The notes under the pieces: generated by a model
What the model was told of the DNA's origin: nothing
Seen by the model: the letters and a program-made list of their open reading frames with translations, nothing else
Databases searched by the model: none
Shown here: positions 39,337-60,393 of the stretch, one piece after another
Layout of the letters: every line of letters starts with the position of its first letter
How positions within the stretch are numbered: the first letter of the stretch is position 1
DNA from: an uncultured Candidatus Saccharibacteria bacterium
GTDB taxonomy: Bacteria > Patescibacteriota > Minisyncoccia > Minisyncoccales > CAYJUL01
Length of the DNA stretch: 63,927 nt
Direction: 5' to 3'
Assembly (NCBI GenBank): GCA_964401295.1
Contig: CAYNXX010000003.1
Location: forward strand, 1 to 63,927
Made by a program: the position numbers and the translations under genes

Positions 39337-40157
39337 CCGGCATTGGCGCGATAAAAATTAATCTGAGAAGGAAAAGATTTTTTGCAATTTCGCATAAAAA
39401 TAAGTTTTCTATTTCTGCTTTCTTTTAGGCCGGTTAGAAATGGATGCTCGCCTGAAGAATTTTTATGAAAAAATTTGGCTCTTGGATTTATGATGCAGTG
39501 ATATCCGAGCCTTTTGGCCCGCATAAAAAAATCCGTTTCTTCAAGTGGAACGTGGCCTTCGCAAAATTCAGGAAAACCGCCTATCTTAAGCGCCTTTGTC
39601 CTATTCAAAGAGCAAAAGCAGCCTAACAAATAATATCCCTTGGCGGGCCATGAAATAAAATCATCCCAAACTTGAAATCCTGCGCTGTTCACATCCCAGG
39701 CGCATTGCCCGGAAAGACCAAATATGAAGTTGAAAATTCGCTCTCCGGTCCTTTTCTTTCTTGCGCCTGGCGCTACGCCTCCTACGCCTAGCAAGCGCGG
39801 ATCTTGCCGGTTACGCTGCCATATCTCCATAAGTTCTCTTAGGGCGCCGGGATATAAAACCGCGTCATTATCAAGAAAAACCACGATCTCGTTTGAGGCT
39901 TTGCGCAAACCAATGTTTTTTGAAGTCGCCGTTCCGCGAAGTTCTTCTGTGTGATTCTTTTTATGATAGATAAGTTTGATTTCTTTTTTCTCCGCCTCGC
40001 TTCTAATTTTTTCTAAAAAGAGCTTGTCTGTCTGTGCGTCATCAATTAAAATAATTTCGTTTGGAAGGACGTCTTGCGAGAAAACCGATTCAATGCACTC
40101 TGTCAAGTCTTTCGACCGATTATATGTTGGAATTATGAGGCTGAATAAAATTTTCAT
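39264..40157 (-). CDS. Glycosyltransferase family 2
   Basis: SLIIPTYNRSKDL...IILIDDAQTD...VFLDNDAV (DxD). Confidence 0.85.
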   Translation of the reverse strand: MKILFSLIIPTYNRSKDLTECIESVFSQDVLPNEIILIDDAQTDKLFLEKIRSEAEKKEIKLIYHKKNHTEELRGTATSKNIGLRKASNEIVVFLDNDAVLYPGALRELMEIWQRNRQDPRLLGVGGVAPGARKKRTGERIFNFIFGLSGQCAWDVNSAGFQVWDDFISWPAKGYYLLGCFCSLNRTKALKIGGFPEFCEGHVPLEETDFFMRAKRLGYHCIINPRAKFFHKNSSGEHPFLTGLKESRNRKLIFMRNCKKSFPSQINFYRANAGWISRQFLAGNFSKTRGMIIGLFL

Positions 40158-41241
40158 GGTATACTTTCTTGGTTTTTTCTAGCATTTTATCCAGAGAAAA
40201 TTGCAAAGATTGCCGCCGCGCTTCTCTGGCAAAGCCATCGCGCAGGGCCGCATCTTCAATAAGTGCGGCAAGCGCTTTTTTTATCCCTTCTTTATCCCTG
40301 ACCGGTACCAATATCCCGCATCTGTCGCTAATTAATTCTTTTACTCCGCCGACATTGGAAACAATAATCGCAATGCCAGCGCTCATCGCCTCTAAAACAC
40401 TATAGGGGCAAGCTTCAAAATTTGAAATAAGCGTGAAAATATCAGCCAGTTTCAACATCTGCCACACCATAGGGCGCGGCACTTCTCCAACAAGGCGAAC
40501 AGCTTGCTCCATTTTATGCTGGCGGATAAAACGCTCAAGTTTTGGTCGCAAAGGACCTTCGCCAACAATATCCAAACAAATATTTTTTGTTGCAACCTGC
40601 AGTTCAAAAAATGCCCTTAAAAGCAGTAACGGATCTTTTTGGCTACTCAATCGTCCTACAAAAATTATCCTGACCGGGCTGGATTCCATTTTTCCGCGAA
40701 TTCCATCCGCCGGAACCATTTCTATGCCGTTGTGAATACAGATAAGTTTATTTTTCTCCGCGATGCTCCATTTTTTGGCTAGCTCAACATCAAATTCGGA
40801 AACGCAGATAATTTTTGCAGCGTATCTGGCTGTAATTTGGGCGCTGAGAAAACCAACTATTCGCATCCAAAAAGAAGCCCTGGGCACAAAAGGCCACCCG
40901 TGCGCCGTAAATATCATCGGCCTTCTTGTGAAGATCGAAAGCGCGCCTATCAGTCCGGCAAAAGAACTATTGCAGTGCACAATATCTGGCGTAACTTGGC
41001 CGATCGCTTTTCGGCAACAATGCATCGCTTTCAAAATATTAATTGGTGAAAAATGGTGCGCAAAAAATGGATTTTCGTAGTATCGAATATTGTTCTTTTG
41101 CAGTTCTTGGGATAGCCAACCTGATCCGCGGCTCATTACTGCAACCTCATGTCCGAGTTCTTTCATATGCGAAGCTAGCTGCGCCACGTATGTTTGCGCG
41201 CCGCCGGCATCCGAATTTGTGACAATATATAAAATTTTCAT
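40120..41241 (-). CDS. Glycosyltransferase family 4 (GT-B, Glycos_transf_1)
   Basis: N-terminal GGAQTYV, C-terminal EACPYSVLEAMSAGIAIIVSNVGGVKELI. Confidence 0.88.
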   Translation of the reverse strand: MKILYIVTNSDAGGAQTYVAQLASHMKELGHEVAVMSRGSGWLSQELQKNNIRYYENPFFAHHFSPINILKAMHCCRKAIGQVTPDIVHCNSSFAGLIGALSIFTRRPMIFTAHGWPFVPRASFWMRIVGFLSAQITARYAAKIICVSEFDVELAKKWSIAEKNKLICIHNGIEMVPADGIRGKMESSPVRIIFVGRLSSQKDPLLLLRAFFELQVATKNICLDIVGEGPLRPKLERFIRQHKMEQAVRLVGEVPRPMVWQMLKLADIFTLISNFEACPYSVLEAMSAGIAIIVSNVGGVKELISDRCGILVPVRDKEGIKKALAALIEDAALRDGFAREARRQSLQFSLDKMLEKTKKVYHENFIQPHNSNI

Positions 41242-42242
41242 AGTTCGCCTTCTTTTTTCATATTTTCTCTCAATCCGTCAAAAACGCCTAGGAAAGAATA
41301 GTAAAACACCTGTGGCCGCCGGGCGCGATTCATAAAACCTGTTAAGAATGCCCAGAATGAATAATACAGACCGAGCTTTAACAAGACGAATGCCATGCTT
41401 TCGTTTTTCGTTTTTCTACCGATTATATCCATGTAGACCATGTTGCGGAAAATATAGTAATGTTTCCACGGAGGGGAAAAATTATGCAGGAAAAATTTGG
41501 CAATAAAAAATTTTTTCTCTTTAGGGCTCCATATCGGCACTGAAACCACTTTTATGATTGTTGTTGGGTGATACACGATGCTGGCTGCATGATAATAAAG
41601 ACGGAAGCCATGTTTTCTTAGCCGCTCAAAAAATTCCCACGATCCTCCATGGGTAAAATAAAGAGGGTCAGGCAGGCCGGCCTCGAGTAGGGCATTTTTC
41701 GGAAAAAGTATTCCCGTCCACTGAGCGCCGTGCCCTTCTACCAGTTCACCTATTTTGCATAATTCTTCATAGCTTTGCGTTGCTGAAAATTTTTTGCCGG
41801 CAAGAATAACGCTGACCGGTTCAAAAAAATGCGTCCCGTCTGGCACGAGCGCGCAACTTGCAAAAATTCTTTTTTTCTGCGGTTGCTCGCGGGCAGACTC
41901 CAGGAGTCTTAAAAGAGCATCCTTTGCCGGCACAACGTCCTGCTCTATGGCCCAAATGTAATCAAAACCAGCCGACAGCGCCCTTTTAAGTCCGGCGTTA
42001 AACCCGCCTTCGCTTCCCGTGTTATGCTTGAGTCTCAAATAGTCAATTTTTTTATTCCCAAAATAGCCAAGACTTCTTAAAAATTCCAAGGCGCCGTCTT
42101 CTGAAGCATTATCTATGATAATAATCGCATCCAGCGGCCGCATCTGCAAACACAAAGCCCTAAGGCATTTTTCAAGCGCTTTTTTATTGTTATAAGCAAC
42201 AGTTACGCTAGCAACCGAGAAAGAAGACGCAGTAGGATCCAT
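41238..42242 (-). CDS. Glycosyltransferase family 2 (rhamnosyltransferase-like), paralogue of 43123-44142
   Basis: VTVAYNNKKALEKCLRAL..QMRPLDAIIIIDNASEDGALEFL; the fold pattern is shared with the 339-aa GT2. Confidence 0.8.
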   Translation of the reverse strand: MDPTASSFSVASVTVAYNNKKALEKCLRALCLQMRPLDAIIIIDNASEDGALEFLRSLGYFGNKKIDYLRLKHNTGSEGGFNAGLKRALSAGFDYIWAIEQDVVPAKDALLRLLESAREQPQKKRIFASCALVPDGTHFFEPVSVILAGKKFSATQSYEELCKIGELVEGHGAQWTGILFPKNALLEAGLPDPLYFTHGGSWEFFERLRKHGFRLYYHAASIVYHPTTIIKVVSVPIWSPKEKKFFIAKFFLHNFSPPWKHYYIFRNMVYMDIIGRKTKNESMAFVLLKLGLYYSFWAFLTGFMNRARRPQVFYYSFLGVFDGLRENMKKEGEL

Positions 42243-43126
42243 CTTAAATAAAAAATAAATAAATAAATTTTTTCGGGCAGAAAGGAAAGGATAAGAAGAA
42301 AATACGGAGGAGGATAAATTGGGTAACTCCTTATTGCTTTAATGATTCTATTTCTTGCGCTTTTAATATCGCCCCAGTTCATATAAATATAGGCGTCGAA
42401 AAACAGCCGGCGCGTCAAATGAAACGGATTGGATGTGTAATATAATATATATTTTTGCAGTATCTGGTCCATATCTCTTTGCATCTTAGCGCAATGCTTA
42501 CGGGAGGTCAGACTTTCTTCTGTATTATTTCTTTTCAAAGCTCTTTGCGGAGCGACTATAAAATGGTAGCCGGCCAGCGCGATCCTGCAAAGCAAATCCC
42601 AATCGTCGGCAAAACTAATATTTTCATCTATAAATCCGCAGTTTTGCACGATTTGTTTTTTTATCACCACCGAAGAGAAATAGATGGGCATTTTTGAAAG
42701 AACAGAATCGCCACTTATTGCTCTTGGAACGGAAACCATCCTTGACGTCCTAACATCTTCGCAGGCCACTACCGCCAGCAAAGGATCAGCGCTTTTTTCA
42801 AACAAATCTAATTGAATTTCTAATTTTTCCGGCAACCACTCGCCGTGCTGACAGATAAACGCGAGGTAATCTCCTACGGCCATTTTTATTCCCATATTAC
42901 GCGGCCCGGCCGGACCGCCGGAATTCTTGGAAATAAATATCGGCCGGATTCTTTTATCCTCGCTCGCAAATCTCTGCAATAAATTTTTTGTGCCATCGTT
43001 TGATGCGTCATCTATCAAAAGCAATTCCCAATTTTGCAAAGTCTGATTTTTTATGCTTAAAACCGTGCGCTCCAGCGTGGTCTCGGCATTATATACCGGA
43101 AGGATAACCGAAACTTTGGGCCTCAT
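42203..43126 (-). CDS. Glycosyltransferase family 2
   Basis: VSVILPVYNAETTLERTVLSIKNQTLQNWELLLIDDASNDGT. Confidence 0.85.
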   Translation of the reverse strand: MRPKVSVILPVYNAETTLERTVLSIKNQTLQNWELLLIDDASNDGTKNLLQRFASEDKRIRPIFISKNSGGPAGPRNMGIKMAVGDYLAFICQHGEWLPEKLEIQLDLFEKSADPLLAVVACEDVRTSRMVSVPRAISGDSVLSKMPIYFSSVVIKKQIVQNCGFIDENISFADDWDLLCRIALAGYHFIVAPQRALKRNNTEESLTSRKHCAKMQRDMDQILQKYILYYTSNPFHLTRRLFFDAYIYMNWGDIKSARNRIIKAIRSYPIYPPPYFLLILSFLPEKIYLFIFYLRWILLRLLSRLLA

Positions 43127-44142
43127 AATGTAAATCTGTTAATAAGGCGCTCGTTAAAGCCGTCCCAAAAGCCCAACATGCAATACTTAAAGGCCGGCAA
43201 ACGGTTCTTGTCCATGCTTATAACAACAAAGAGGCGGAAAAGACAATAAGGAACAGCCTTAAAAAACCGCACTAAAAAATTAATGCCGTGTCTTTCGCTT
43301 CTTCTGCCCAAACGCATTATAAGACCATTGCGCATTTGGTAATAATACTTCCAGGCAGGACGCAATCTGTAAAAATATATTTTCCAGCGTTTCGTTGGTC
43401 CCCAGAATAATGTTTTATATCCGTGCGCCAAGCGCGGATGAAATACGATGCTCTTTGTAGAATAATAGAGCGGAAAACCTCTTTGTCTGAGCCTGCGGCA
43501 AAATTCAAAAAATCCATCGTAAAAATATTCCGGATTGGGAAACGCACTAGTAAGCGCCTGGCGCGGCAAAAACAGTCCCGCATAAACCGCACCATGCCCT
43601 TCTACAAGCTCTCCAAATCCGCGCAGCTCTTCATAGCGCTCTATTTCTATATAGGCAACTCCGTCCGGCGTAGTAAAAATAGGCCTCTTGTCGGAATTTG
43701 CGGCTGTCTTAGCAATAAAAATAGGCTCTGAAAAATAAATGCCGCCCGGCGCAAGGTGGGAGCTGTTAAAACATGCTTTTTGCGCCGGAAATTCTTCTGC
43801 GGCGGCCAGAAGATACGCCAGTGCATCGTCTTTAGCTCCAGCATCCTGATCAAAAAGCCAAAAGTAATCAAACCCTTCTTGGTATGCCATCTTAAGGCCT
43901 GCGTAAAATCCTCCATCCGGACCAACATTTACGCTTAGCTTGTAATAGGCTACCTTCGGTTTTGAAAGATATCCCTCCTGGCGTAAAAATTCCTCGGTTC
44001 CATCCCGAGAAGCATTATCCACTAGGAAAATCTTATCCAATGGATAGCTCTGCCGAAGAAGCGAATCAAGGCATTGCCGCACAACAAACTTCGCATTATA
44101 AATCACCACAATGGCGCAAACTTTCGATCTTTTATCTTCCAT
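43123..44142 (-). CDS. Glycosyltransferase family 2 (rhamnosyltransferase-like)
   Basis: AIVVIYNAKFVVRQCLDSLLRQSYPLDKIFLVDNASRDGTEEFL. Confidence 0.8.
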   Translation of the reverse strand: MEDKRSKVCAIVVIYNAKFVVRQCLDSLLRQSYPLDKIFLVDNASRDGTEEFLRQEGYLSKPKVAYYKLSVNVGPDGGFYAGLKMAYQEGFDYFWLFDQDAGAKDDALAYLLAAAEEFPAQKACFNSSHLAPGGIYFSEPIFIAKTAANSDKRPIFTTPDGVAYIEIERYEELRGFGELVEGHGAVYAGLFLPRQALTSAFPNPEYFYDGFFEFCRRLRQRGFPLYYSTKSIVFHPRLAHGYKTLFWGPTKRWKIYFYRLRPAWKYYYQMRNGLIMRLGRRSERHGINFLVRFFKAVPYCLFRLFVVISMDKNRLPAFKYCMLGFWDGFNERLINRFTL

Positions 44143-45172
44143 AATACAGATGCGGATTCAGATATTTATTTTTAACATTTTTACGAATATCCATAAGCCA
44201 ACTCTTATGCTCTTTATACCAACGCATTGTCTCCAAAAAAGCATCGCTAAAAGAAAAATGGGGCCGCCACTCAAACTCTTTTTCTATCTTCCCGCTGTCA
44301 ATGGCATGAAAACGAATATCAGCCGGCCTGTCTTCTACAAATTCAATCCACGAATCATCCTTGCCAAAATAGCGCAAGATCATTCTTGCAATTTCTATGT
44401 TCTGCAGATTTTCTTTTGTGCCTACATTATAGATTTGCCCAGGCGTGCCCCTAAAAAGGCAGCGCTCCAGAGCCGCGCAGGTATCCAGCACATAAATCCA
44501 GTTTCGGACGTGCCTTCCATCGCCATAAAGGGGTAGTTTTTTTCCTTCCATAAGGCGTAGAACAAAAAATGGAATAAATTTTTCAGGGTGCTGAAATGGA
44601 CCGTAATTATTGGCGCATATTGCGACAACTACCGGCAGATTGAAAGTGCTAAAGTACGAAAGACACAAAAGATCTCCGGCGGCTTTTGTCGCTGCGTAGG
44701 GACTTTGCGGCGAAAGACGGTCTTCTTCCCGAAAGCCTCTTTTAAACCTGGATGGCAAGCTTCCATAAACCTCAATACTAGAAACCTCCAAATATTTTTT
44801 TATATGCGGACTCGCCATCCTTACTGCGTCAGCAATGCTTCGCACCCCCTCTATATTTGTCGTTACAAATTCTTCAGTGCCGCAATAAATAGATCTGTCA
44901 ACATGCGTTTCTGCAGCAAAGTTAACCAGATATTGCGGTCGGAACAAAGTGATAGCTCGCCGGAGACGCTGAAAATCTGCGATATCTCCTTTTAAAAATT
45001 TCGTGCGGCTGTTGCCTGCTATGTCCTTAAGTCTGCGCAAATCTCCAGCATAAGTCAGTTTATCATAATTCAAAATTAGCGCCCACGGATATTTTCGCAG
45101 AATATAACGTATAAAATGGGAGCCGATGAAACCTGCCCCTCCGGTCACAAAAATTTTAAGATTTTTCGGCAT
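44132..45172 (-). CDS. rfbB: dTDP-glucose 4,6-dehydratase
   Basis: VTGGAGFIGSHF Rossmann motif, YAATKAAGD (YxxxK), NNYGPFQHPEKFIPFFVLRLMEGKKLPLYGDGRHVRNWIYVLD. Confidence 0.88.
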   Translation of the reverse strand: MPKNLKIFVTGGAGFIGSHFIRYILRKYPWALILNYDKLTYAGDLRRLKDIAGNSRTKFLKGDIADFQRLRRAITLFRPQYLVNFAAETHVDRSIYCGTEEFVTTNIEGVRSIADAVRMASPHIKKYLEVSSIEVYGSLPSRFKRGFREEDRLSPQSPYAATKAAGDLLCLSYFSTFNLPVVVAICANNYGPFQHPEKFIPFFVLRLMEGKKLPLYGDGRHVRNWIYVLDTCAALERCLFRGTPGQIYNVGTKENLQNIEIARMILRYFGKDDSWIEFVEDRPADIRFHAIDSGKIEKEFEWRPHFSFSDAFLETMRWYKEHKSWLMDIRKNVKNKYLNPHLYYGR

Positions 45173-45196
45173 AGGCCACGGAAAATTAATTCTTGA

Positions 45197-46231
45197 TCAG
45201 CGAAGCCAATGGGAAATGTCGCCATCGCCCAGAAGGAGATGCCGCGGAGTTTTCTGCATCAGCGTCTCTTCTAAAAGTAAAATATCATTTCTGAAATACT
45301 TTCGCAATTCGTTGCGAAATTCGTCTCTTATTTTAGCCGAAGGAGCATGTTTTACCAACAACGAATAGGCCGCTGGCCCTAATAAATCTTTAACCCTGGG
45401 CAAAATGTTAAATCTGCGCTTTATGCCTAACTTTTCTTTTGTTTTTTGCACCAGCGGCAAAGGTTTTCTCCAAAAAAGCGGCTCAAAAAATTTTCGACAT
45501 AGTAAAGGCGCTATAAAATTTGCCTTCCACATCCTGCTTCTGTTTATCGCGGGGAAGTCTGATCGGCCGTCGGATGGCACGCCCAAAAATCTCAGCACTT
45601 TTTCATATACCTCTTTGGGATTTTGCCTGAAATAATCCCACATAATAATCAATGCCCTTTCCTGACTGATTAATTGATAAAATCTTTGCATCTGCTTGCC
45701 AAGTTGAAATATATCTCCGTATTGCAACACGCGCGGCTCTCTAATCCAGTCTGGCATATCAGGAATAAATAAACCATTTCTGCGGGCATCTTGAAGCCGC
45801 CATGCTTTTTCAAAATCAGGAGCGTCTTCTGTGCCCAAAAAACGATAGAGAAGGTAGTAAGAAGGCGCTGTTGCAAGCGGCGAGCGCAGTAAGACGATAA
45901 ATTTTGCCTCGGGATTATATCGCAGAATCTCCGGCACGGCTTTTTTGCTGAAAAGATACAAGACCGATCCTTCGCCTGCGGTTTTCCATAGTCTTTGCCT
46001 CAGCCTTGGGAAACATATATTGATATAATCCTCAACGGTGCACATACGCTGGTCCCTCGGAAGATTAAGATCTGTATTAAAAAAATTCGGCTCCTTCGGA
46101 CAAGAACATAATATATCCGGATGCGACTTCAAATATTCAAACAACGCTGTGGTTCCGCTGCGCGGCGCTCCGATGATAAAAAAATTTGGTTTTAACAATC
46201 CACTAGCCATTAAATAAATTTTCTTTAACAA
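45197..46231 (-). CDS. PAPS-dependent sulfotransferase family protein
   Basis: 5'-PSB loop IIGAPRSGTTAL and 3'-PB-like VLLRSPLATAPSYY; cytoplasmic (no signal peptide). Confidence 0.8.
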   Translation of the reverse strand: MLKKIYLMASGLLKPNFFIIGAPRSGTTALFEYLKSHPDILCSCPKEPNFFNTDLNLPRDQRMCTVEDYINICFPRLRQRLWKTAGEGSVLYLFSKKAVPEILRYNPEAKFIVLLRSPLATAPSYYLLYRFLGTEDAPDFEKAWRLQDARRNGLFIPDMPDWIREPRVLQYGDIFQLGKQMQRFYQLISQERALIIMWDYFRQNPKEVYEKVLRFLGVPSDGRSDFPAINRSRMWKANFIAPLLCRKFFEPLFWRKPLPLVQKTKEKLGIKRRFNILPRVKDLLGPAAYSLLVKHAPSAKIRDEFRNELRKYFRNDILLLEETLMQKTPRHLLLGDGDISHWLR

Positions 46232-47840
46232 ATTTTATCACTCTTAGGGCATTTTCTTCTGCGCCTAATTGATGAGTAAAAAGATGGACTTCTGCTTGCT
46301 CTGGCGGTTCATAAGGATCGGATATGCCAGTGAAGTGCAAAATTCTGCCCAACCGCGCCTTTTGATAAAGTCCTTTAGTATCCCTTTTCTCGCATATTTC
46401 CAGCGGACAATCACAAAATACCTCTATAAATCTTCCGCCAGCCTCTTCTACTTTCTTTCTCACAAACGATCGCTGCTGGGCATAGGGCGAAATAAATGAA
46501 CAGACAACTGCAACTCCCCTTTTTGTAAATAATGCCGCGAGAGTTGCAACTCTTCTAATATTTTCATCGCGATCCGCTTTTGAAAATCCAAGGTCGCTGC
46601 TTAGATACTCTCTCGCATCATCTCCGTCTAAACGTTCAGCCGGCCATCCGGCTTCTTCAATGAAACGAAAAACATTATTTGCGATTGTTGTTTTGCCAGA
46701 CTGCGATAAACCCGTAAACCATAATACAAATCCCCCTTTTTTGCTCATGGCTGAAGACTGATACCATTGATCTATCAGCGGCTTTCGGCTGCAAGAAAGT
46801 AGATAGAAAATCTCCGGACGCAAAAGAAAAGAGGGCGGTTGCTCCTTTTTTTCAATTAAATCGCGCAGAAGGGTCGCGCTAAAAGATATATCATCGTTCG
46901 TGATGCATTCGCCAGCGAAACGATGCCGTTTTGCGCCGGAACACCACACCACTTCCGGAAACTTCAAAATTTCAATTCCCAATTCTTTTTTTGAGAAGCT
47001 GTCAAAAATCTGCTGAGCCGCGAACGGAAGATAATAATTGCCTACCCCTGCATGATCCCGCCCCACAATAAAATGAGTGCAGCCATAATTTCTCCGCACT
47101 AGAGCATGAAATACCGCTTCGCGAGGACCAGCATAACGCATTTTCAAAAATGCGACTGCCAAAATTGCTCGTCCTTGGGGATAATAATGGTCAAACAGCA
47201 TTTCGTAGCTCGCAAGAATATATTCGTCCTTAAAATCTGCAAGCTTCTTTCTCCCCACGATTGGCTGTAAAAAAAGTCCGTCTGTCACAGATAGCGCTTG
47301 CTGATGTAAAAACTCATGGCCCCGGTGCGGTACATTTCTCGTCTGAAACGCGGCTATTGTTTTCCATCCTTTTTCATGGAAAATCTTTTTTGTTTCGACG
47401 GGCCTAAAATAATATTCCCTAAATTCGTGAACTTCGGGCAAACTTATAGTTTCCAGCTCTCCACCCAATAAATAATTCTTCATCTGGACGAATTCGTCAA
47501 CTCCCGGATGCTTTCTGTCGGCGGTTCCAAAAATTAATCGCGCGCTGCGTTCTTTGTCATACTCGTAAATTTCGATATCCTTGAGCAAACCTATGATTTT
47601 AGATTCCTCATCCTTTAATAAAACCTCATCTTCTTTTTTAAGTCTATCCGCTGTTTGCTGGTCAATATCCAAAATAATCGGAATCGGCCATATCGCTCCG
47701 TTACTAAGCCGCATTTCGGTGCATACGCTTTCAAAATCCTTTTTCTTTAAAAATCCGGAAAGCGGCGCATATACACCGTCTTTAATATTTCTTAGCTCAT
47801 TTATTTTTTCTGCGCTCAACACGAGTTCTTCATGGGCCAT
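46203..47840 (-). CDS. sat/cysC: Bifunctional sulfate adenylyltransferase (ATP sulfurylase) / adenylylsulfate kinase, i.e. a PAPS synthase
   Basis: QTRNVPHRGHEFL and GRDHAGVGNYY (sulfurylase). The C-terminal domain has GLSQSGKTTIAN (P-loop) and FISPY (APS kinase). Confidence 0.9.
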   Translation of the reverse strand: MAHEELVLSAEKINELRNIKDGVYAPLSGFLKKKDFESVCTEMRLSNGAIWPIPIILDIDQQTADRLKKEDEVLLKDEESKIIGLLKDIEIYEYDKERSARLIFGTADRKHPGVDEFVQMKNYLLGGELETISLPEVHEFREYYFRPVETKKIFHEKGWKTIAAFQTRNVPHRGHEFLHQQALSVTDGLFLQPIVGRKKLADFKDEYILASYEMLFDHYYPQGRAILAVAFLKMRYAGPREAVFHALVRRNYGCTHFIVGRDHAGVGNYYLPFAAQQIFDSFSKKELGIEILKFPEVVWCSGAKRHRFAGECITNDDISFSATLLRDLIEKKEQPPSFLLRPEIFYLLSCSRKPLIDQWYQSSAMSKKGGFVLWFTGLSQSGKTTIANNVFRFIEEAGWPAERLDGDDAREYLSSDLGFSKADRDENIRRVATLAALFTKRGVAVVCSFISPYAQQRSFVRKKVEEAGGRFIEVFCDCPLEICEKRDTKGLYQKARLGRILHFTGISDPYEPPEQAEVHLFTHQLGAEENALRVIKFVKENLFNG

Positions 47841-48040
47841 ATATTGCTCTTAAAAAGTCTCGGTCTTTTTCGCAAGAATGATAGGATAACTGAAATAGAT
47901 AGTCACTCCGGTTTATATTTCCGTAAGCTCATAGCCATGGAGGTGAATCCACTATCATATTTTATTTCTCTCAAAAATAAAAACGAGCGTCAAGCAGTGA
48001 AAAGATGAGTGCGTATGTAGTGCCGAGCAGCTGCCTTGCG

Positions 48041-50773
48041 CTATCCGCTAGGCGTAGACGATGCCTGATCAGCTCCGGCCGGCTGCGCGGCGCTAGTGCT
48101 TGTCGATTGGGAATCGTTTACAGTTGGCGATTGCGTAGAGCTCGTTGTGCTAACACCTGCAGCTGTTGTAGTTGCGTTCTCGCTTGCCACACCGCTAGTT
48201 GTGGACGTGGCAATAGATGTAGTGGTGATTGTAGATGTGGTTGTGGTTGTAGCGGTGGGAGTAGACGTAGCGGTGCCAAGCGAGATTATATCGCCGGTGA
48301 TCGTGACGCCGCTCTCCGCGCCGCCCGCAGCTGCGCCATCGGGCGCAGCTGCGGGCGCCAAAGCAGAACTGGTAGAGCTTGCCGAAACGCATTCGCCCTG
48401 AACCAGTGACCAAATGCCGTTTTCAATTTGCGCGCACCAGATTTTGCCGGTTGCCTTGTCAACCATTTCAAGACCTCCTACGCGCGCGGTCCTAGCGAAC
48501 AATTTATCAACCACAAGCTGGCGCAAAGACAAAACGCCATCTTTTATCGTGCCGCCGATGGCCGCCAAAAAATCTTCAAAACCACCCGCAGTACCGGTTA
48601 AGAAACCCTTCAACTGACTAAACAGCGACGCATCGCTGGAAGCGGAGCCAGAAGTAAGGGCATAATTGGAATTTTCCGTACTGCTCGACACAACAATGCC
48701 GATGCCCTGATATTCCTTGCCTTGATCGGTCGGCCAATTACGCCAGTCAAAACGAGGCGCGCTAAGCCGCCATGAAACTTCAAGCGGCTTGTCGCCGAAA
48801 ATAATCAGGCGGTTATTTGCCGGATCTTTTTTATAAGAAACCTTAGCGCCATCCTCGGCCGAGAGCAAAACGCTCAATAAATCCATCTTCTCTCCGAAAT
48901 CTGTAACACGTTTGAATACCCATAAATCAGAGCCTTTCTTGGTCTTATTAAAATCAATAACATAGGCAAATAATCCCTCTTCTAAGCTCGGCAAAAGCTT
49001 GGCATTGCCGGCAACTTCTTCTTTAAGGCCAAGCATACTTGGCCCATAAGTTGCGTAAAGTAAATTATCGATGCTGTACAGCGGGTCCTGAACGCCAAAA
49101 GTAATTTTTGAATTGGCGCCTCCGTCGCCGATTATCAAATTAGTCGTGCTGGCGCTGGTTACCGCGCTGATGGTAAATGCGCTGGTCGCGGAGCGCCACA
49201 TCCTGAGCGGATCAGTCGTCCCAAACTGAATAGCGCTTGAAGAAGCAATCGGCGAGCTGTCAGCAACCGTAAGCAATGTTCCAGGTTGTGTCGTGCCGAT
49301 ACCGACACGTTTATTGGTGCTATCGAAAGTAACATAAGGTGTATTGGTACTATATGTGGCGATCTGAAGAGAGGTCGTAGAATCAGTATCTTGTGGCCTA
49401 ATACGCCCTCCGGCTTTTATCATGAAATCTGGATTGCTATTAAACGCAAATTGGGCGGTGCCGCTAGTATCTCTAATATTAATAAATCCTGCAGCGCCCA
49501 TCTGAATGTAGAGGTTATCATTACTTCCTTGGTATATCCCCCCACCCGTTGGTGCGCTGACGTCAGCGCTATTTCTAAAACGGATCCCTCGATTCCCCGT
49601 CCAATCTCCGTTATCTAGGGCCAGAATTCCACCTACGATATCCAATTTTGCTGACGGTGCTATCGTCCCAATCCCGACTTTGCCGCCTAAGGTTGCGAGC
49701 GTTGTGGTCGCGGTAGTGATTGCGGTTCCAACAACATGCAAGGTGCTAGACGCCTGCGTTGTCCCGATGCCTAAACGATTGTTAGTGTTATCCCAAAAGA
49801 AGTTAGCATTGTTTTGAGCAATAACTCCGCTCACGCCGGCAAACAAAACAGAACCAGAAGTCAGCCCTGAAATAGTCGTGCTTGCGGTTGATAAGGTTCC
49901 TGCCGCAGTAACATTGCCCGAGGAATCAACAAGAAACTTCTGCGTACCATTCACCGCCGCTCCGAAAAGCGTCCAGCCTGCCGTGGCGTTGACCGGGTTG
50001 ATATAGATAGAGCCTTGCGATACGCCGGTGCCTGTCGGCAATGCGTCAAAGGTTATCAAACCGTCTGCATTGTCAGCAACGTCGCTTCGCAAAAATTGGG
50101 TTGAATCCAGATTATCCAATTTATCCGCATCAAACGCTGCGGGTGCGGCACCGAGTTTTTTGCGTGGAATCATTTCTGAATCAGAACCAACGGTAACGCC
50201 AAGCCACAAAGTTTGGCCGAAATCAATGCTCGCCAAACTCGTAAGAGTTCCCAGCATTGTTGAAAATAATCCGGATTTGGTATATATTTGGTTCGTAACG
50301 GTATCGCCATTTGACCAAGTGGAAAATGTGCTATAAACGCAGATAAAATTATTCGTTGTGTCAACCGATTTTATAACCGCGGACTCTTTTTTATTCGTAT
50401 CCCAGAGATATTGGCCTGCCGCCAAGGTGTTTTCGTTGGTGTTATTAGTGTATGCTACTTTGTCGTCGCCGCCACAGTTAGTTGCATCAGACTTAGTAAA
50501 AGTTATGTTTGTGTCTGTGAAAAGCGCGGATGCGATCCAAGATTCGGTCCAAATCGCGATTCCCCCGCCGGCCGCGGCGTAAAGCTTGAAAACCATATCC
50601 CGCGTCGCGTCCGCGACCGCCACTCCGGTTGAATCAGTAAGTTTGCCCTGATAATTTAGCTCGGGGTTGAAAGCGGCGCGCGAAATTTGATTGGCTCCAA
50701 AAATAAGTCCGCCAAATATAGCTACGACTACGACTAAAATTATTGTTATTTTATTTTGGAACCATTTTTCCAT
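48041..50773 (-). CDS. Large N-terminally anchored surface fibre protein with tail-fibre-like motifs and an S/T/A-rich tail
   Basis: N-terminal TM segment. It has three xxxGIGTxxxxxxLxV motifs (NNRLGIGTTQASSTLHV, GGKVGIGTIAPSAKLDI, NKRVGIGTTQPGTLLTV). The C-terminal 120 aa or so are low-complexity S/T/A. Confidence 0.6.
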   Translation of the reverse strand: MEKWFQNKITIILVVVVAIFGGLIFGANQISRAAFNPELNYQGKLTDSTGVAVADATRDMVFKLYAAAGGGIAIWTESWIASALFTDTNITFTKSDATNCGGDDKVAYTNNTNENTLAAGQYLWDTNKKESAVIKSVDTTNNFICVYSTFSTWSNGDTVTNQIYTKSGLFSTMLGTLTSLASIDFGQTLWLGVTVGSDSEMIPRKKLGAAPAAFDADKLDNLDSTQFLRSDVADNADGLITFDALPTGTGVSQGSIYINPVNATAGWTLFGAAVNGTQKFLVDSSGNVTAAGTLSTASTTISGLTSGSVLFAGVSGVIAQNNANFFWDNTNNRLGIGTTQASSTLHVVGTAITTATTTLATLGGKVGIGTIAPSAKLDIVGGILALDNGDWTGNRGIRFRNSADVSAPTGGGIYQGSNDNLYIQMGAAGFINIRDTSGTAQFAFNSNPDFMIKAGGRIRPQDTDSTTSLQIATYSTNTPYVTFDSTNKRVGIGTTQPGTLLTVADSSPIASSSAIQFGTTDPLRMWRSATSAFTISAVTSASTTNLIIGDGGANSKITFGVQDPLYSIDNLLYATYGPSMLGLKEEVAGNAKLLPSLEEGLFAYVIDFNKTKKGSDLWVFKRVTDFGEKMDLLSVLLSAEDGAKVSYKKDPANNRLIIFGDKPLEVSWRLSAPRFDWRNWPTDQGKEYQGIGIVVSSSTENSNYALTSGSASSDASLFSQLKGFLTGTAGGFEDFLAAIGGTIKDGVLSLRQLVVDKLFARTARVGGLEMVDKATGKIWCAQIENGIWSLVQGECVSASSTSSALAPAAAPDGAAAGGAESGVTITGDIISLGTATSTPTATTTTTSTITTTSIATSTTSGVASENATTTAAGVSTTSSTQSPTVNDSQSTSTSAAQPAGADQASSTPSG

Positions 50774-50818: not shown

Positions 50819-52431
50819 ATTGGGGCGTCGTTTCTAGAAAGTTGCTGAATTAATCTTATTCGCGACGGCTTATCCTGTTGTCTGGTCGGCGGGATTTGCG
50901 CCGATGTTAAGATTGATCTTTGGGGCGTTGACCGCGCAACGGCCCGCACTTGCGCCGGTGCCTGCGGCATATGTGCAGTCTGAATAGCGGGTCGGCGCAG
51001 GATCGGCTGATGCGCAGATGGCGCCTGTGACGCGGGCGCCGCTTTATTACGCAATTTTTTTAATTTTTTCGCGGCGAGCAATAAAATCAGCAATAGTAAT
51101 ATATATGGAAGCCATCGCCAGATTCCCGGGCGAACCGGCTGTGGCGCTGGTGCCATAGCTGCCAGCAAAATCTCTATTTCCCCTGCCATGCGTTTTCTGA
51201 CCTGATTTTTAAAATCCATCACGCTGATGTAAAGCGGATAAGTTATTGGGCTATCGGGTGGAAAAATTCTTGCCTCGTATGCGGTTTTATCACCATTGAT
51301 GCGCAAAATAAAGGAAAATAATCTTCTCGTTGCCAGCGCCTGAGCCAGCGAAGCCTGCTGATTTTCCAATCCACTCTGATCTGTAGATTTGACATCTGCA
51401 TTACGGTCCTGCGGTTTTTCCAAAGTAACCAGTATGGTTTTTAAAACTTTCGGTGCTTTTTCATAGGCAAGTTTTACCGTAATCGGTGGACCTATCTGCG
51501 CCTGTACTTTTCCCTCGATCATCGGCAAACGTTTTCCTTCCTGCCAGAATTCAAAATCGGATAACTGCAGCGCTTTAAGTTCGGGCAGAATCCCTGCGGT
51601 TGGCGGAAAAAGTTCGGGGGGCACAGTTGTCGGCGCGCCGGGCGTGGCGAACGCGATCGCGCCAGATGCATACTTGCCAGATTTATCATAGGCGAAAGCC
51701 GTATAATAATAACCCACGCCGTTGATCAAACCATTATCAACAAACGATTCGCCATTAGAATTATAGATAACTTCGCCGTCGTAGAGATCCTGTGGATAAA
51801 AGAAAGTGCTGCGCAAAATTCTCACTCCTTTGAAATTTGGATCCTTCGGATTTTGCCAGGTTAAATTTACCTGCCCATCGCCGGCCACCGCCTGGAAATT
51901 TTGCACGTTTGGCGGTGGCGCTGGCACAAATAATGTTCTAAAGGTTTTATCCGTGGTAAAGCCCAACCTGTTTTTGTTATCTCGCGCTTCAATCTTGAAG
52001 TGATATAAAGTGTCTTGGTTTAAATCTATAAGCGCAACCGAGTGTTCGGTGGAAGGTTTTATTTCGGCAATCGTTTCAATTTCATATTCGGCGGTGCGTC
52101 CCAAGAAAAATTGTGAAATAGCCGGCTTTGACGTTTTCCAAGAAATAATCGCGCTGTTATAACTTGGCCTTACAACAATATCCGTGATACGCGGGGGAAA
52201 TATATCCACGAATCCTCCTCCCGGGATGGACACAGGACAATCCGTAGGACAGTTCGTTGAGTTTTCTCCCGACTCGCAAATACCATTGCCGCAGACTGGC
52301 CCGACAACACTAGCTACGACATCTTGCGTAATAATCACTTTGTCCGAAGTTAAATCAGCGCTCGTTTCTGAAAACCCCGTCAACGAAGCCGCAAATGCAA
52401 ATATTAAAATGTAAATCAAGATCTGCTTCAT
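50800..52431 (-). CDS. Secreted/anchored protein with FN3-like domains, a C-terminal TM segment and a P/Q/A-rich tail
   Basis: Signal peptide, Cys knot CGNGICESGENSTNCPTDC, FN3-like PPPNVQNFQAVAGDGQVNLTWQNP...YYYTAFAYD, TM segment WLPYILLLLILLLAA. The last 6 codons and the stop lie inside palindrome copy a. Confidence 0.65.
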   Translation of the reverse strand: MKQILIYILIFAFAASLTGFSETSADLTSDKVIITQDVVASVVGPVCGNGICESGENSTNCPTDCPVSIPGGGFVDIFPPRITDIVVRPSYNSAIISWKTSKPAISQFFLGRTAEYEIETIAEIKPSTEHSVALIDLNQDTLYHFKIEARDNKNRLGFTTDKTFRTLFVPAPPPNVQNFQAVAGDGQVNLTWQNPKDPNFKGVRILRSTFFYPQDLYDGEVIYNSNGESFVDNGLINGVGYYYTAFAYDKSGKYASGAIAFATPGAPTTVPPELFPPTAGILPELKALQLSDFEFWQEGKRLPMIEGKVQAQIGPPITVKLAYEKAPKVLKTILVTLEKPQDRNADVKSTDQSGLENQQASLAQALATRRLFSFILRINGDKTAYEARIFPPDSPITYPLYISVMDFKNQVRKRMAGEIEILLAAMAPAPQPVRPGIWRWLPYILLLLILLLAAKKLKKLRNKAAPASQAPSAHQPILRRPAIQTAHMPQAPAQVRAVARSTPQRSILTSAQIPPTRQQDKPSRIRLIQQLSRNDAPMFKVTL

Positions 52432-54686
52432 TTGGTCTTTGCTGGATTTTGATTGGAATTTTGATCCGGACTTGGCGCCGTCAATTTTTCGGCATCAGCC
52501 TTCAATTTATCTGCGTAAAACGGGTAAACCTCGATCGCCTTTTGATATATATCTTTGGCCGTATTTTGATCCCCGAGCTGCCCGAAAAGCCAGGCCGTTG
52601 CTTCAAAAAATGTAATCTCTGGGCTGGCTTCCTGACGCATACGCGCTATGGTTTCGGGACTAAATCCCGGTAATTGTTTCAATAATTCTTTAACCCCGCC
52701 CATCCTCTCTGTGTATTTGAGCTCAATTCCGTTTTTAAAGTGCTCCGCGGCTTTCTGTGATTGACTAGAGCGCAGGTATACGATACCCATAATTCTTTGC
52801 ATTTCAAAAGCATCTTGAGGTCTTTGTAATGAAAGTTGATAGCCGCGGTTAAAATACTCTTCGCCTTTGGCGTAATCTCCTTCATAGATGTAAAAACGGC
52901 CCAAAATATAATAGTATTGCAGCCATTGTTTGTTAAAAGCCAGGGCCTTTTTTGATATATCCTCTCCTTCGCGCAGAAAATCTTTATTTTGACTGACCAG
53001 ATAGAGCCATTCGTCAGATCTAGCGGCAGCTTCATAGAAATTAAGGTACCTTATCTCCGGCTGATCCAAACTTTTCAGCAGTTCCGGCCGGAACTGCGCA
53101 AGATTTTCCAAGATTTCTTTTTGCCATTGGCCGCCGGCCTGCTGATCAAGAACTGTAAGATCGCGCCCGACCATATTAAGAAGGATTTCTCTTCTGTACT
53201 GAGTGGTGCGATCCATGGCGCGCTGGTAATACTTAAGCGCGCCCGGAAAATCTTTCTGTTCCATAAAAAATCCACGCACCGTATCATAGCTTGCGAGGAC
53301 CGATTTTACATTGACAAAATATATGCTTAAAATCGCCAATGGCAGAAACGCTATAATGATTGCCTGTTTTAACGGCGCCAGATTCACTGGGAAACGCCGC
53401 TCGACGAAATAATTATTATTAACAAAGGCAAGTACGAGAAATAAAACAAGATAAGTGCTAAGAGTATCAAATGCAAAAATATTCTGTAAAAAATATGAAA
53501 TAAATAACGATATTAAGAGGAAAGTCGGAAGCTCCCCCATTTTTTTCCTACCACGCCATAAAGCCGCGAAGGCTAAAACTAGAATTAAAATATAACTTAA
53601 TGCGCCAACCATTCCGGTCTCGGCCATAAAATTTAAAATCTCATTATGCGCATCGCTAAAAACGTAATAAGCCTGAATATATTGCTGATAACGAGCTTCG
53701 AAATATTTGTAATAAAGATAGTTGAAAGATTCGGCGCCCCAACCAAATATAGGTCTGTCGCGCCATGCTTTGATCGCTGTTTCCCATCCTGGGAAACGAC
53801 CCATTATGCTGGCCGGATTAAATCCCTGCAAGAATCTAGCGCCTAACGATCCTTGTTTAAAAAGGATTTTTGATTCAAACACAATAAGCAAGAGCAATAA
53901 AATGCTTATTGCCAATGCGCCGATTAAAATATATTTTCTGAGGTTTTTTCTTGAATTAAGAAGCGGTAGGAAATAGAAAAAACCCGTTATTGCAAGCCCC
54001 AATAAAAGACCCAGGAGCGCAGACCTCCCGCCAGACAAGAAAAGAGCGACTGCTTCAAGTGCGGCAAGCGCAAGCCAGACATTTCTTAAAATTTTTTCCT
54101 TTTCAACGGCAGCAAGATATAAAGCCAGAAAAATAGTCATTGCCAGAAAAAAACCGAAATAAACTGGATTGGAAAGAGTCCCGCTTATTCTGCCCGTCTG
54201 AATACCCACCCCGTAAAATCCAGCTATGCCTAGTTTTTGGACGAATCCAGCTAAGGTGGAAACAAAACTTATCAGCACTATTGCGCGCAAAGGAAACAAC
54301 CAACTATTATATGTCTGGAAAAGACCTGATGCGATTACAAAAAAAACTAAATAATGCAAAATTGTCACAAGGCCGCCACCACCCTCTAAACTTCCCCAAA
54401 AACTTCGTATAATGTTAAATCCAGTGATAGAAGATATAAGCATTGCGGCGAAAAATATCAGTAACATGCCCGTCAATAAGGTAAATTTTGGGGCATAACG
54501 GCTATCTATTAACAGCAAGATCAGATATAAAATTGCCACCACCTCAACTGCGGTTCTAAAATATATGGTTTTTGGATATTCCGAGAAAGATAAACCGAAT
54601 GGTCCCAAAACCAATGGCGCGAATAAGGTAATAAAAATCCCTATTTTTGCGGCTTCGAAAATATATTTTTTAATATTCTTCTCCAT
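52428..54686 (-). CDS. Second O-antigen ligase family (Wzy_C) membrane protein with C-terminal TPR repeats
   Basis: SGGRSALLGL and DAHNEILNFMAETGMVG motifs, with the same architecture as 37069-39336. ATGA overlap with the downstream FN3 gene. Confidence 0.8.
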   Translation of the reverse strand: MEKNIKKYIFEAAKIGIFITLFAPLVLGPFGLSFSEYPKTIYFRTAVEVVAILYLILLLIDSRYAPKFTLLTGMLLIFFAAMLISSITGFNIIRSFWGSLEGGGGLVTILHYLVFFVIASGLFQTYNSWLFPLRAIVLISFVSTLAGFVQKLGIAGFYGVGIQTGRISGTLSNPVYFGFFLAMTIFLALYLAAVEKEKILRNVWLALAALEAVALFLSGGRSALLGLLLGLAITGFFYFLPLLNSRKNLRKYILIGALAISILLLLLIVFESKILFKQGSLGARFLQGFNPASIMGRFPGWETAIKAWRDRPIFGWGAESFNYLYYKYFEARYQQYIQAYYVFSDAHNEILNFMAETGMVGALSYILILVLAFAALWRGRKKMGELPTFLLISLFISYFLQNIFAFDTLSTYLVLFLVLAFVNNNYFVERRFPVNLAPLKQAIIIAFLPLAILSIYFVNVKSVLASYDTVRGFFMEQKDFPGALKYYQRAMDRTTQYRREILLNMVGRDLTVLDQQAGGQWQKEILENLAQFRPELLKSLDQPEIRYLNFYEAAARSDEWLYLVSQNKDFLREGEDISKKALAFNKQWLQYYYILGRFYIYEGDYAKGEEYFNRGYQLSLQRPQDAFEMQRIMGIVYLRSSQSQKAAEHFKNGIELKYTERMGGVKELLKQLPGFSPETIARMRQEASPEITFFEATAWLFGQLGDQNTAKDIYQKAIEVYPFYADKLKADAEKLTAPSPDQNSNQNPAKTK

Positions 54687-58466: not shown

Positions 58467-59555
58467 TTAATGAGTTTTTATACTTTGCAGAATTCCCAAT
58501 GCAACATAGTTCATTATCAGCCCAGATCCGCCATAACTGACGAATGGCAAGGGAATGCCAACTACCGGGAAAAGACCTAAATTCACAGCTATATTGAGAA
58601 AAGACTGCGAAGCCAAAACAATAACAAAACCAACCGCAAAAAGTCTAACAAAATTATTTGATGCCGTAATTGCTATATGCAAAATACGCCACCAAAGTAA
58701 TAAAACCAGGATTAGAAGAACGCTCACGCTCAAAAAACCGAATTCTTCAGCAATAGAGGCGAAAATGAAGTCGGTTTGGTTTTCTGGTAAAAAACCGTAC
58801 TGGGTTTGTGGCCCCTGACCAAAACCGCGCCCAAATAATTCGCCAGACCCAACGGCTATTTTAGATTGAGCCTGCTGCCAACCAATCCCTAAATAATCTT
58901 TTTGTGGATAAATAAAGGTTAAAATCCTTTCTTTCTGATAATTTTTAAGGACGAAAAACCAGCTAAGACTAAAAATAATAATAAATAAAGTACACAATAA
59001 TAAAAAATGCTTAATTTTTATACCAGATGCAAATAAAATACCTATCCACATGCTTCCTAATATTAAAATCTGGCCAATATCCGGACGAAGAAAAATTAAT
59101 ATGGCTGGTATGCCAATATATATTCCTGATATAAATATATGCCTTAAATTGTAAAGCTCAATATGCCTTTGGGAAAAATATTTAGCTAATAATAAAATTA
59201 TAATTATTTTCATCGGTTCGGCTGGATCTAATGAAAATGAACCTATTTTGTACCAGCTTTTTGTTCCCCTAATTTCTGGCACTAAAAAAAATAATCCAAT
59301 AAGCAAAAAAATGCCAATGATATAAGAAAATAAAATAAAAAATGATTCATTCCGTAAAAATCTCCAGTCGGAAAATCCAATCATTATCATTAAAATAATT
59401 CCAGATATGAAAAAAAATAATTGTTTTTCGAAATTAATAAAATTATTAATTCTTAAAGATGAGCTATAAATGGAAATTAATCCAAAAAAAACCAAAAATA
59501 TAGGAATAATTATTATTCCGGGGTCAAATTTTTTAACAGTTTGAATAAGATTCAT
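58467..59555 (-). CDS. SEDS family peptidoglycan polymerase (FtsW/RodA/SpoVE)
   Basis: 10-TM pattern, ...QTDFIFASIAEEFGF..., PLPFVSYGGSGLI. Confidence 0.9.
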   Translation of the reverse strand: MNLIQTVKKFDPGIIIIPIFLVFFGLISIYSSSLRINNFINFEKQLFFFISGIILMIMIGFSDWRFLRNESFFILFSYIIGIFLLIGLFFLVPEIRGTKSWYKIGSFSLDPAEPMKIIIILLLAKYFSQRHIELYNLRHIFISGIYIGIPAILIFLRPDIGQILILGSMWIGILFASGIKIKHFLLLCTLFIIIFSLSWFFVLKNYQKERILTFIYPQKDYLGIGWQQAQSKIAVGSGELFGRGFGQGPQTQYGFLPENQTDFIFASIAEEFGFLSVSVLLILVLLLWWRILHIAITASNNFVRLFAVGFVIVLASQSFLNIAVNLGLFPVVGIPLPFVSYGGSGLIMNYVALGILQSIKTH

Positions 59556-59646: not shown

Positions 59647-60393
59647 TCAAGATAGTTCGATAAAAATAGGATCTGTGTGGTATTTTTTCTTCTCTAGATA
59701 ATTTTTGGTTAATTTTTTGAGTTCCTCATTTGTTAAGGCTATGCCGCCGGCGAAACAATCATTTATCCATTGGCGCTCACCCATCAAAAGAGATGTTCTA
59801 GCCCCAAACAGGTCTTGGAAGCTGGAATAAGGATACTGTTCCAAAAAATCAAAAAAATCGTTCCATTCTCCCACTCCAAGCTTTTTCCAATCCGGTTTCC
59901 AAACATCTATTGCGTTTTTAATGTTTATATAAAATATTAGCCTTGCCAACTGAACATCATCCTTACATAATACCAACCTATATGGTCGTTCAAAAACATT
60001 TCCAGTTCTGTGATGTTTATTATTGAAATATTTTGAAAAAGCTGTTTTCATTTTTTGTGTATATTTGGAAATACCATTTTTAGTATAGGGAGAGACAAGC
60101 AAATGGAAATGATCACGGACCAATATAAAACTCAATATATTTACCAATGGAGGATGTTCTCTGGTAATTAGATTCTTCTGTGGTTCTAAACCGTTTAATA
60201 TTGCATGGACAGCCCTAGTAGTGTCTTCTCTATATATATTAAGATTTGGTCTGCCTATATTTGCGGCATACATATAAAATAAAAAGCGGTCTCGATCAGC
60301 CTCATTATCAAAAACTGCCTTAGAGTCTATGCCCCTATTATAGATATGATAAAAGGCTCCTTTTTTAAAAATAGAATTTCGCGAGATAGACAC
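59647..60393 (-). CDS. IS200-like Y1 (HUH) transposase family protein, RAYT-like
   Basis: FYHIYNRGIDSKAVFDNEADRDRFL..., HUH-type DHFHLLV, ...HRTGNVFERPYR..., ARLIFYINIKNAI (the YIHxNP-like region). The gene is flanked on both sides by the palindrome. Confidence 0.65.
   Translation of the reverse strand: MSISRNSIFKKGAFYHIYNRGIDSKAVFDNEADRDRFLFYMYAANIGRPNLNIYREDTTRAVHAILNGLEPQKNLITREHPPLVNILSFILVRDHFHLLVSPYTKNGISKYTQKMKTAFSKYFNNKHHRTGNVFERPYRLVLCKDDVQLARLIFYINIKNAIDVWKPDWKKLGVGEWNDFFDFLEQYPYSSFQDLFGARTSLLMGERQWINDCFAGGIALTNEELKKLTKNYLEKKKYHTDPIFIELS

Follow-up and report, generated by a model that had tools for sequence, protein, structure and literature searches.

The window considered here is the whole 63,927-nucleotide stretch of contig CAYNXX010000003.1 (assembly GCA_964401295.1) from an uncultured Candidatus Saccharibacteria bacterium, a member of the candidate phyla radiation (CPR). 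On its minus strand lie two overlapping genes, which are predicted to make PAPS (3′-phosphoadenosine 5′-phosphosulfate), a sulfuryl donor, and to use it. An original prediction, drawn from the letters of the sequence, had read the first as a fusion of ATP sulfurylase and adenosine 5′-phosphosulfate (APS) kinase, and the second as a sulfotransferase. Both open reading frames (ORFs) were recovered where it had placed them:

46203 to 47840, minus strand: bifunctional PAPS synthase of 545 amino acids, with a PUA-like domain (residues 5-133), ATP sulfurylase (142-348) and APS kinase (370-520), as delimited by Pfam.
45197 to 46210, minus strand: cytoplasmic PAPS-dependent sulfotransferase of 337 amino acids from its ATG, as predicted by Pfam, an AlphaFold model (AF2) and Foldseek.

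The translation of the 545-residue ORF includes the motifs on which the fusion had been called (QTRNVPHRGHEF, GRDHAGVGNYY and GLSQSGKTTIAN), and Pfam recognises in it, in this order, PUA_2 (E = 2e-42), ATP-sulfurylase (4e-72) and APS_kinase (5e-59). Like those of the sulfotransferase ORF, these matches are far beyond chance. The best solved relative, the SAT/APS kinase of Aquifex aeolicus (PDB 2GKS), is collinear with residues 8-541 (E = 3e-112) and agrees with Pfam on the fusion. The sulfurylase motifs QTRNVPHRGHE, MRYAGPREA and GRDHAG align with the same motifs in 2GKS and satisfy the patterns QxRNxxHxxH, MRxAGPREA and GRDHAG. The kinase motifs GLSQSGKTT (a P-loop, GxxxxGK[ST]), LDGD, FSKADRDENIRR and FISPY are also kept, and the kinase domain is thus predicted to be of the catalytically competent type, unlike the regulatory pseudo-kinase of fungal enzymes. 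Of the NCBIfam models, the protein passes TIGR00339 (sulfate adenylyltransferase; 344 bits, with the cutoff at 323) and TIGR00455 (adenylyl-sulfate kinase; 210 bits, with the cutoff at 139). Because it nevertheless misses the bifunctional equivalog NF004040 (495 bits against 669), we regard it as a divergent member. As judged from its sequence, the fusion protein appears to be an Aquifex-type PAPS synthase.

The recorded start of the sulfotransferase gene, an ATG at 46210, overlaps the TAG stop codon of the PAPS synthase gene by 8 nt, in ATGGCTAG. A stop/start overlap had been part of the original prediction, and it is the usual signature of translational coupling. A longer ORF of 344 amino acids (45197-46231) begins at an alternative TTG at 46231. 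The protein, encoded by the sole sulfotransferase gene of the genome, matches both Sulfotransfer_3 (PF13469; E = 3e-15, 57.4 bits against a cutoff of 27) and Sulfotransfer_1 (PF00685; 9e-11, 42.1 bits against 22). The PAPS-binding loops PRSGTT and RSP...S, named before any search was made, are present, and in an alignment with 49 relatives the conserved positions are P16-[K/R]17-x-G19-T20-T21, K39-E40 and R109-x-P111...S117. Five of these (G19, T20, E40, R109 and P111) are invariant, E40 being a candidate catalytic Glu, while S117 is found in 40/49 relatives. HMMER aligned the KEPNFF segment with AEPHFF of heparan-sulfate 3-O-sulfotransferase 3, a segment in which we take the catalytic Glu of the 3-O-sulfotransferases (3-OSTs) to be located.

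In the AF2 model (pLDDT 90.8, pTM 0.89), the fold is closest by Foldseek to 3RNL, an uncharacterised sulfotransferase from Alicyclobacillus (6e-13, TMt 0.82). Next come the sulfotransferase domain of NDST1 and the 3-OSTs (about 1e-8) and, at lower scores, tyrosylprotein sulfotransferase (TPST) and polyketide and small-molecule sulfotransferases. Sequence and fold therefore agree in placing the protein, which had been awaiting assignment to a subfamily, with what is predicted to be the heparan-sulfate/3RNL carbohydrate type; the presumed sugar acceptor follows from operon context alone. A sequence scan found no transmembrane (TM)-like, hydrophobic or signal segment, so the enzyme would act in the cytoplasm, where PAPS is made. 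Its closest homologues are 41-43% identical, with none above this, and about 700 relatives, unnamed or with generic names, are spread over many phyla, with Delongbacteria, Bacteroidales, Anaerolineae and cyanobacteria among their sources.

The pair stands at the head of an operon of nine genes, running from 47840 down to 37069, which overlap or are separated by gaps of at most 24 nt. In order, these encode the PAPS synthase, the sulfotransferase, an RmlB-type protein, three GT2 glycosyltransferases, a GT4, a further GT2 and a Wzy_C-TPR protein. The genes that follow the pair are:

44132 to 45172, minus strand: RmlB-type dTDP-glucose 4,6-dehydratase, a short-chain dehydrogenase/reductase (SDR) (TIGR01181 at 365.1 bits, exactly the cutoff; Pfam Epimerase and GDP_Man_Dehyd).
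39264 to 44142, minus strand: block of five overlapping glycosyltransferase genes (Pfam), given singly in the next five lines.
43123 to 44142, minus strand: GT2 (Pfam).
42203 to 43126, minus strand: GT2 (Pfam).
41238 to 42242, minus strand: GT2 (Pfam).
40120 to 41241, minus strand: GT4 (Pfam).
39264 to 40157, minus strand: GT2 (Pfam).
37069 to 39336, minus strand: polytopic Wzy_C protein (O-antigen ligase/polymerase-like) with C-terminal TPR, the last gene of the operon (Pfam Wzy_C 5e-22; about 13 TM-like segments).

The RmlB-type gene begins 24 nt past the sulfotransferase gene. For the five glycosyltransferases, NCBIfam gave sub-cutoff matches alone, to exopolysaccharide (EPS), teichuronic-acid and Pgl-type transferases. 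As to the sugar that the dehydratase might help to make, RmlC (PF00908) was not found in this genome or in a same-genus genome, so L-rhamnose as the 6-deoxy sugar, by the classical route, is doubtful and probably not the product.

The original prediction had remarked that no cysH, cysI, cysJ or sulfate transporter gene lies near the pair. None is present in the window, and none was found in the genome as a whole, which comprises 683,340 bp in 8 contigs and is rated 100% complete with 0% contamination. Scans of this genome by family gave no match to PF01507 (PAPS_reduct; CysH, CysD), PF01077 (NIR_SIR; all sulfite reductases) or PF00291 (PALP; CysK/CysM), whereas the same families were matched in 14/14, 11/14 and 14/14 control genomes, respectively. 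There is also no full-length AprA-type flavoprotein in the genome; matches to that family span the first ~45 positions, which form a generic dinucleotide-binding Rossmann motif. Because a reductive pathway is absent, PAPS would serve as a sulfuryl donor only, just as had been proposed, and the catalytic and PAPS-binding residues that are kept, together with the glycan operon, support this as well. The contrary proposal would be that the enzymes serve sulfur assimilation or dissimilation, with the reductive steps lying on unassembled DNA or being supplied by a partner, or with the sulfurylase running in reverse from APS to ATP. An assembly in 8 contigs does have small gaps, and G205, another CPR genome with the fusion, has a strong PAPS_reduct match, the only one among five other CPR genomes with sat/cysC. 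However, the reductive families are missing from a genome rated complete while their controls were matched, the AprA-type matches are of the generic kind, and the intact fused APS kinase and the overlapping sulfotransferase gene point to the use of PAPS, not to reduction. We consider this proposal extremely unlikely.

The locus is thus predicted to combine a capacity for PAPS synthesis, a carbohydrate-type PAPS-dependent sulfotransferase and linkage to a glycan operon, in a genome without reductive assimilation. In our view, the pair is probably a self-contained sulfation module heading a surface-glycan operon, with PAPS used to sulfate a surface glycoconjugate. The enzymes are of well-known kinds, the module is a further case of a recognisable kind, and the inference is a standard one. 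In the mechanism that we envisage, the fusion protein would first convert ATP and sulfate to APS and pyrophosphate (PPi), and then APS and ATP to PAPS and ADP. The genome encodes a membrane H+-pyrophosphatase (855 bits), which can take away the PPi released by the sulfurylase and, as a sink, would pull that step forward; no soluble pyrophosphatase was found in the genome. The RmlB-type dehydratase and the five glycosyltransferases would build a glycan intermediate, lipid-linked or nucleotide-activated, and the sulfotransferase would use PAPS in the cytoplasm on one of its sugars. The glycan would probably be carried on polyprenyl phosphate, primed by a Bac_transf enzyme and flipped by a Wzx-like protein, and the Wzy_C-TPR protein may then polymerise the exported glycan or move it onto a surface polymer or protein. 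The by-product, 3′-phosphoadenosine 5′-phosphate (PAP), would presumably be cleared by an NrnA-like DHH/DHHA1 protein.

Several observations weigh against this reading. Neither a Wzx nor a priming transferase is encoded within the operon; a Bac_transf priming transferase (C1:70162-70710) and a Wzx-like flippase gene (C1:92599-93402) are both on another contig, and MraY is present in the genome. No recognisable sulfate importer was found in the genome, with SulP, PiT, DASS, TauE/TSUP and any BPD_transp_1 ABC permease all absent, and the PAP phosphatase CysQ (PF00459) gave no match there. The 322-residue DHH/DHHA1 protein has NrnA (oligoribonuclease/PAP phosphatase) as its best NCBIfam match, but at 64 bits, with the cutoff at 350, this is a weak assignment. 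For homologues of NrnA, pAp phosphatase activity is documented (PMC4081065). Since there is no CysQ, we presume that this protein acts as PAP phosphatase, and it is the only candidate that the genome offers. Lastly, position 17 of the sulfotransferase, in the 5′-phosphosulfate-binding (5′-PSB) loop, is Lys in 40/49 relatives and Arg in 9/49, and the window protein has Arg.

The lack of known sulfate transporter families and of CysQ could mean that the module is inactive cargo, in a cell that sulfate cannot enter and from which PAP cannot be cleared. The absence of the module from the same-genus genome and from all sampled same-order genomes, which makes it dispensable, fits this as well. However, neither ORF is disrupted, all the catalytic motifs are kept, and the G+C content of the two genes (0.424 and 0.426, against 0.428 for the genome) suggests long residence without decay. 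Furthermore, generic carriers encoded in the genome (MFS, AI-2E family, EamA-like and an unassigned 10-TM protein) could admit sulfate, and the NrnA-like protein is present. Inactivity therefore seems to us very improbable.

The Arg at position 17 bears on another alternative, in which PAPS does serve as sulfuryl donor but the sulfate goes to something other than a glycan, possibly a lipid or glycolipid, a small metabolite or a tyrosine in a protein. Precedents are the sulfolipids of mycobacteria or Entamoeba and, for protein tyrosine, RaxST or TPST. Tyrosylprotein sulfotransferases also use a PRSGTT loop with Arg, phmmer gave weak TPST matches over residues 15-43, and an acceptor is not known for any close relative, the nearest match being 41% identical and the names generic. 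Over its full length, however, the enzyme is nearest in sequence and fold to 3RNL and the heparan-sulfate N-/3-O-sulfotransferases (TMt 0.6-0.8, whereas TPST reaches a TMq of ~0.35), and its gene lies within a glycosyltransferase operon, to which it is also linked translationally. A non-glycan acceptor is thus unlikely, and we retain the sulfation of a surface glycoconjugate as the preferred reading.

Upstream of the operon, the following features were found:

47841 to 48040, minus strand: intergenic gap of 200 nt, likely a promoter region, and the sole gap of more than 24 nt within 37069-50773.
48041 to 50773, minus strand: membrane-anchored protein of 910 amino acids and no known family, directly upstream of the PAPS synthase gene (N-terminal TM segment; 44% T+A+S+G).
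52428 to 54686, minus strand: second Wzy_C and TPR membrane protein (Pfam Wzy_C 3e-18 and TPR; about 14 TM-like segments).

An fn3 protein is also encoded among the three genes upstream of the 200-nt gap, together with the 910-residue protein and the second Wzy_C-TPR protein. Because of the glycan operon and these upstream surface genes, we assign the PAPS synthase/sulfotransferase pair to a cell-surface island. A promoter scan of the gap itself gave a weak -35/-10 match (47906-47878, 9/12) that does not exceed the shuffle expectation. The gene for the 910-residue protein has a G+C content of 0.49, against 0.43 for the genome; its product has no Pfam or NCBIfam match, and a protein atlas search was uninformative. 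We suggest that it may be a surface protein, and possibly one that accepts the glycan.

Four Wzy_C-TPR paralogues are counted in the 683-kb genome, with two in the window (37069-39336 and 52428-54686); listed with these are G000:C1:99417-101522, C2:94583-96982 and C4:36030-39699. Two tandem PMT-like GT-C proteins are also encoded in the genome. The outlay on glycan transfer outside the cytoplasm is unusually large, and it would fit with extensive glycosylation there, possibly of proteins. A bolder picture, which is possible but which we regard as doubtful, is that of an ultra-small epibiont, unable to assimilate sulfate, that retains PAPS synthesis solely to sulfate an O-linked glycan, with the Wzy_C-TPR enzymes moving the glycan to pili or to the 910-residue T/S-rich protein, and so forms a heparan-like anionic coat for attachment to its host. 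For this, sulfate would have to enter by a route not yet described, and an NrnA-type enzyme alone would have to act as PAP phosphatase. That the sulfated surface molecule serves in host adhesion is likewise speculative.

The sulfation module is sporadic in the phylum, with a share of about 4% in 301 evenly sampled genomes. Strong APS kinases (E<1e-25) occur in 12/301 and Sulfotransfer_3 over its cutoff in 11/301, and six genomes have both, often in neighbouring genes, where ~0.4 would be expected if the two were independent, although relatedness inflates these counts. The original prediction had considered the module unusual for a streamlined genome. It is indeed uncommon, but it is recurrent in the phylum, where glycan clusters are again its setting. 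A sulfotransferase gene is found within a few kb of sat/cysC in three genomes (G041, G060 and G193), and other CPR sat/cysC loci also sit among GT4, GT2 and SDR genes. Closer to the window, the fusion protein was found in 0/13 same-order genomes and is absent from one same-genus genome (95% complete), and a DNA search with the 6.6-kb segment gave no match in 12 relatives.

A tree of the sulfurylase domain with 93 rows, built by maximum likelihood in a quick search, puts the window protein in a clade of 11 members, all of them CPR (SH-aLRT 98). Its sister group there consists of the 567-570-residue fusions of G188, G041 and G205 (SH-aLRT 99), which belong to other classes and are 52% identical to it, and not of fusions from its own class. 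A further three CPR sulfurylases branch among non-CPR bacteria. A blastp search for an orthologue of the window sulfotransferase (E<=1e-5) gave no match in G041, G188, G193, G205 or G250 and a weak one in G060 (23% identity, E 6e-12). Since the neighbouring sulfotransferases elsewhere are not orthologous, the pair did not travel as a fixed unit. The patchy distribution and the tree imply lateral spread or repeated loss within the phylum. Recent horizontal transfer is unsupported by composition, as the G+C content of the two genes equals that of the genome. The simplest reading is that the Sat-CysC gene is an old, CPR-adapted accessory gene that has been laterally spread or often lost, and that has been paired with varied sulfotransferases in varied glycan clusters. 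Directly upstream of the closest Sat-CysC homologues, in G205, G041 and G188, lies a cysQ-type (Inositol_P) gene (L005:3191-3985, L006:3183-3992 and L007:3168-4007).

Elsewhere in the window, the protein encoded at 16052-18031 combines SBP_bac_5 (a family-5 solute-binding domain) with a peptidoglycan-binding domain; since the genome lacks a BPD_transp_1 permease, this binding protein is an orphan, and its role may be something other than transport. At 58467-59555 and 59647-60393, an FtsW/RodA-family gene of low G+C content (0.31, with GC3 of 0.27; genome 0.43) has an IS200-like Y1 transposase gene as its neighbour. Another FtsW/RodA gene is found at G000:C2:12378-13529, and the low-GC copy may be acquired. 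A terminase-large-subunit-like ORF (33-1115) adjoins a large serine recombinase gene (1192-2541) and is probably part of a mobile-element or prophage remnant.

In bacteria, surface glycans that carry sulfate are considered rare, and a 2021 study of synechan called cyanobacteria unique among bacteria in making sulfated extracellular polysaccharides (PMC8205485). A literature search on sulfation (sulfotransferase, sulfate adenylyltransferase, PAPS) in Patescibacteria or CPR found incidental mentions only, among them sat as one of the CPR genes in metagenome-assembled genomes from acid mine drainage (PMC12153355). Intact operon-embedded PAPS and sulfotransferase modules in some CPR genomes without sulfate reduction suggest that sulfation is in the surface repertoire of some host-dependent bacteria. 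The module is a concrete, testable marker for a surface chemistry that may matter for attachment, and the lack of an importer and of CysQ points to functions in transport and PAP recycling that have gone unrecognised in reduced genomes.

Among enzymes and systems already described, the Aquifex aeolicus protein (2GKS) shares with the window PAPS synthase its domain order (PUA-like, sulfurylase, C-terminal kinase) and has 546 residues compared to 545. The window protein differs in lacking a 6-residue loop after GRDHAG, and its gene differs in being part of a glycan operon in a genome without sulfate reduction. The sulfotransferase resembles 3RNL and the heparan-sulfate 3-O- and N-sulfotransferases in its fold, in its 5′-PSB and 3′-phosphate-binding (3′-PB) loops and in the Glu within K-E-P-x-F-F (compare EPHFF of 3-OST-3). 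However, identity to these proteins is 15-23%, the window enzyme has Arg for Lys in the loop, and it carries an extra C-terminal helical region of ~100 residues (226-337).

Within the CPR, four same-class genomes (G392, G395, G415 and G524) encode PAPS synthases fused to pyruvate kinase (PK). These share the Sat-CysC core and the CPR-specific sulfurylase clade (SH-aLRT 98) with the window protein, and their genes are followed, as in the window, by sulfotransferase or glycan genes, but the window protein has no N-terminal PK barrel. The triple fusions have 908-959 amino acids and join a PK barrel, PUA, ATP sulfurylase and APS kinase (L016:1483-4302 in G392; L017:361-3084 in G395; L018:1495-4317; L019:1483-4359). 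In G395, it is a sulfotransferase gene that comes after the fusion gene, while in G250 (L119:7934-12169) a cysC fusion lies side by side with sat and a PK-like gene, all as separate genes. This linkage of PK to Sat-CysC suggests ATP recycling driven by phosphoenolpyruvate for PAPS synthesis; our literature search found no paper on fusions of pyruvate kinase with either ATP sulfurylase or APS kinase.

The xss cluster of Synechocystis, which makes synechan, is similar to the window operon in that PF00685/PF13469 sulfotransferase genes stand amid many glycosyltransferase genes and one for a Wzy-type protein (PMC8205485). It differs in having its own Wzx, polysaccharide co-polymerase (PCP) and regulators, and no PAPS synthase is among its listed genes (PMC8205485). 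The PAPS used there would presumably come from the assimilatory pathway of Synechocystis. In the window, by contrast, the PAPS synthase gene is in the operon, the Wzx and priming enzyme are encoded elsewhere, and the host is a non-assimilating CPR bacterium. In the rhizobial NodPQ-NodH and mycobacterial CysDNC-Stf0 systems, a dedicated PAPS supply serves a sulfotransferase whose target is a glycoconjugate, either secreted or on the surface. Their sulfurylase is of the heterodimeric, GTPase-type CysD/CysN kind, whereas the window genome has a different sulfurylase and lacks PF01507 (CysD), and their hosts also assimilate sulfate; the resemblance of the window module to these systems is a functional one.

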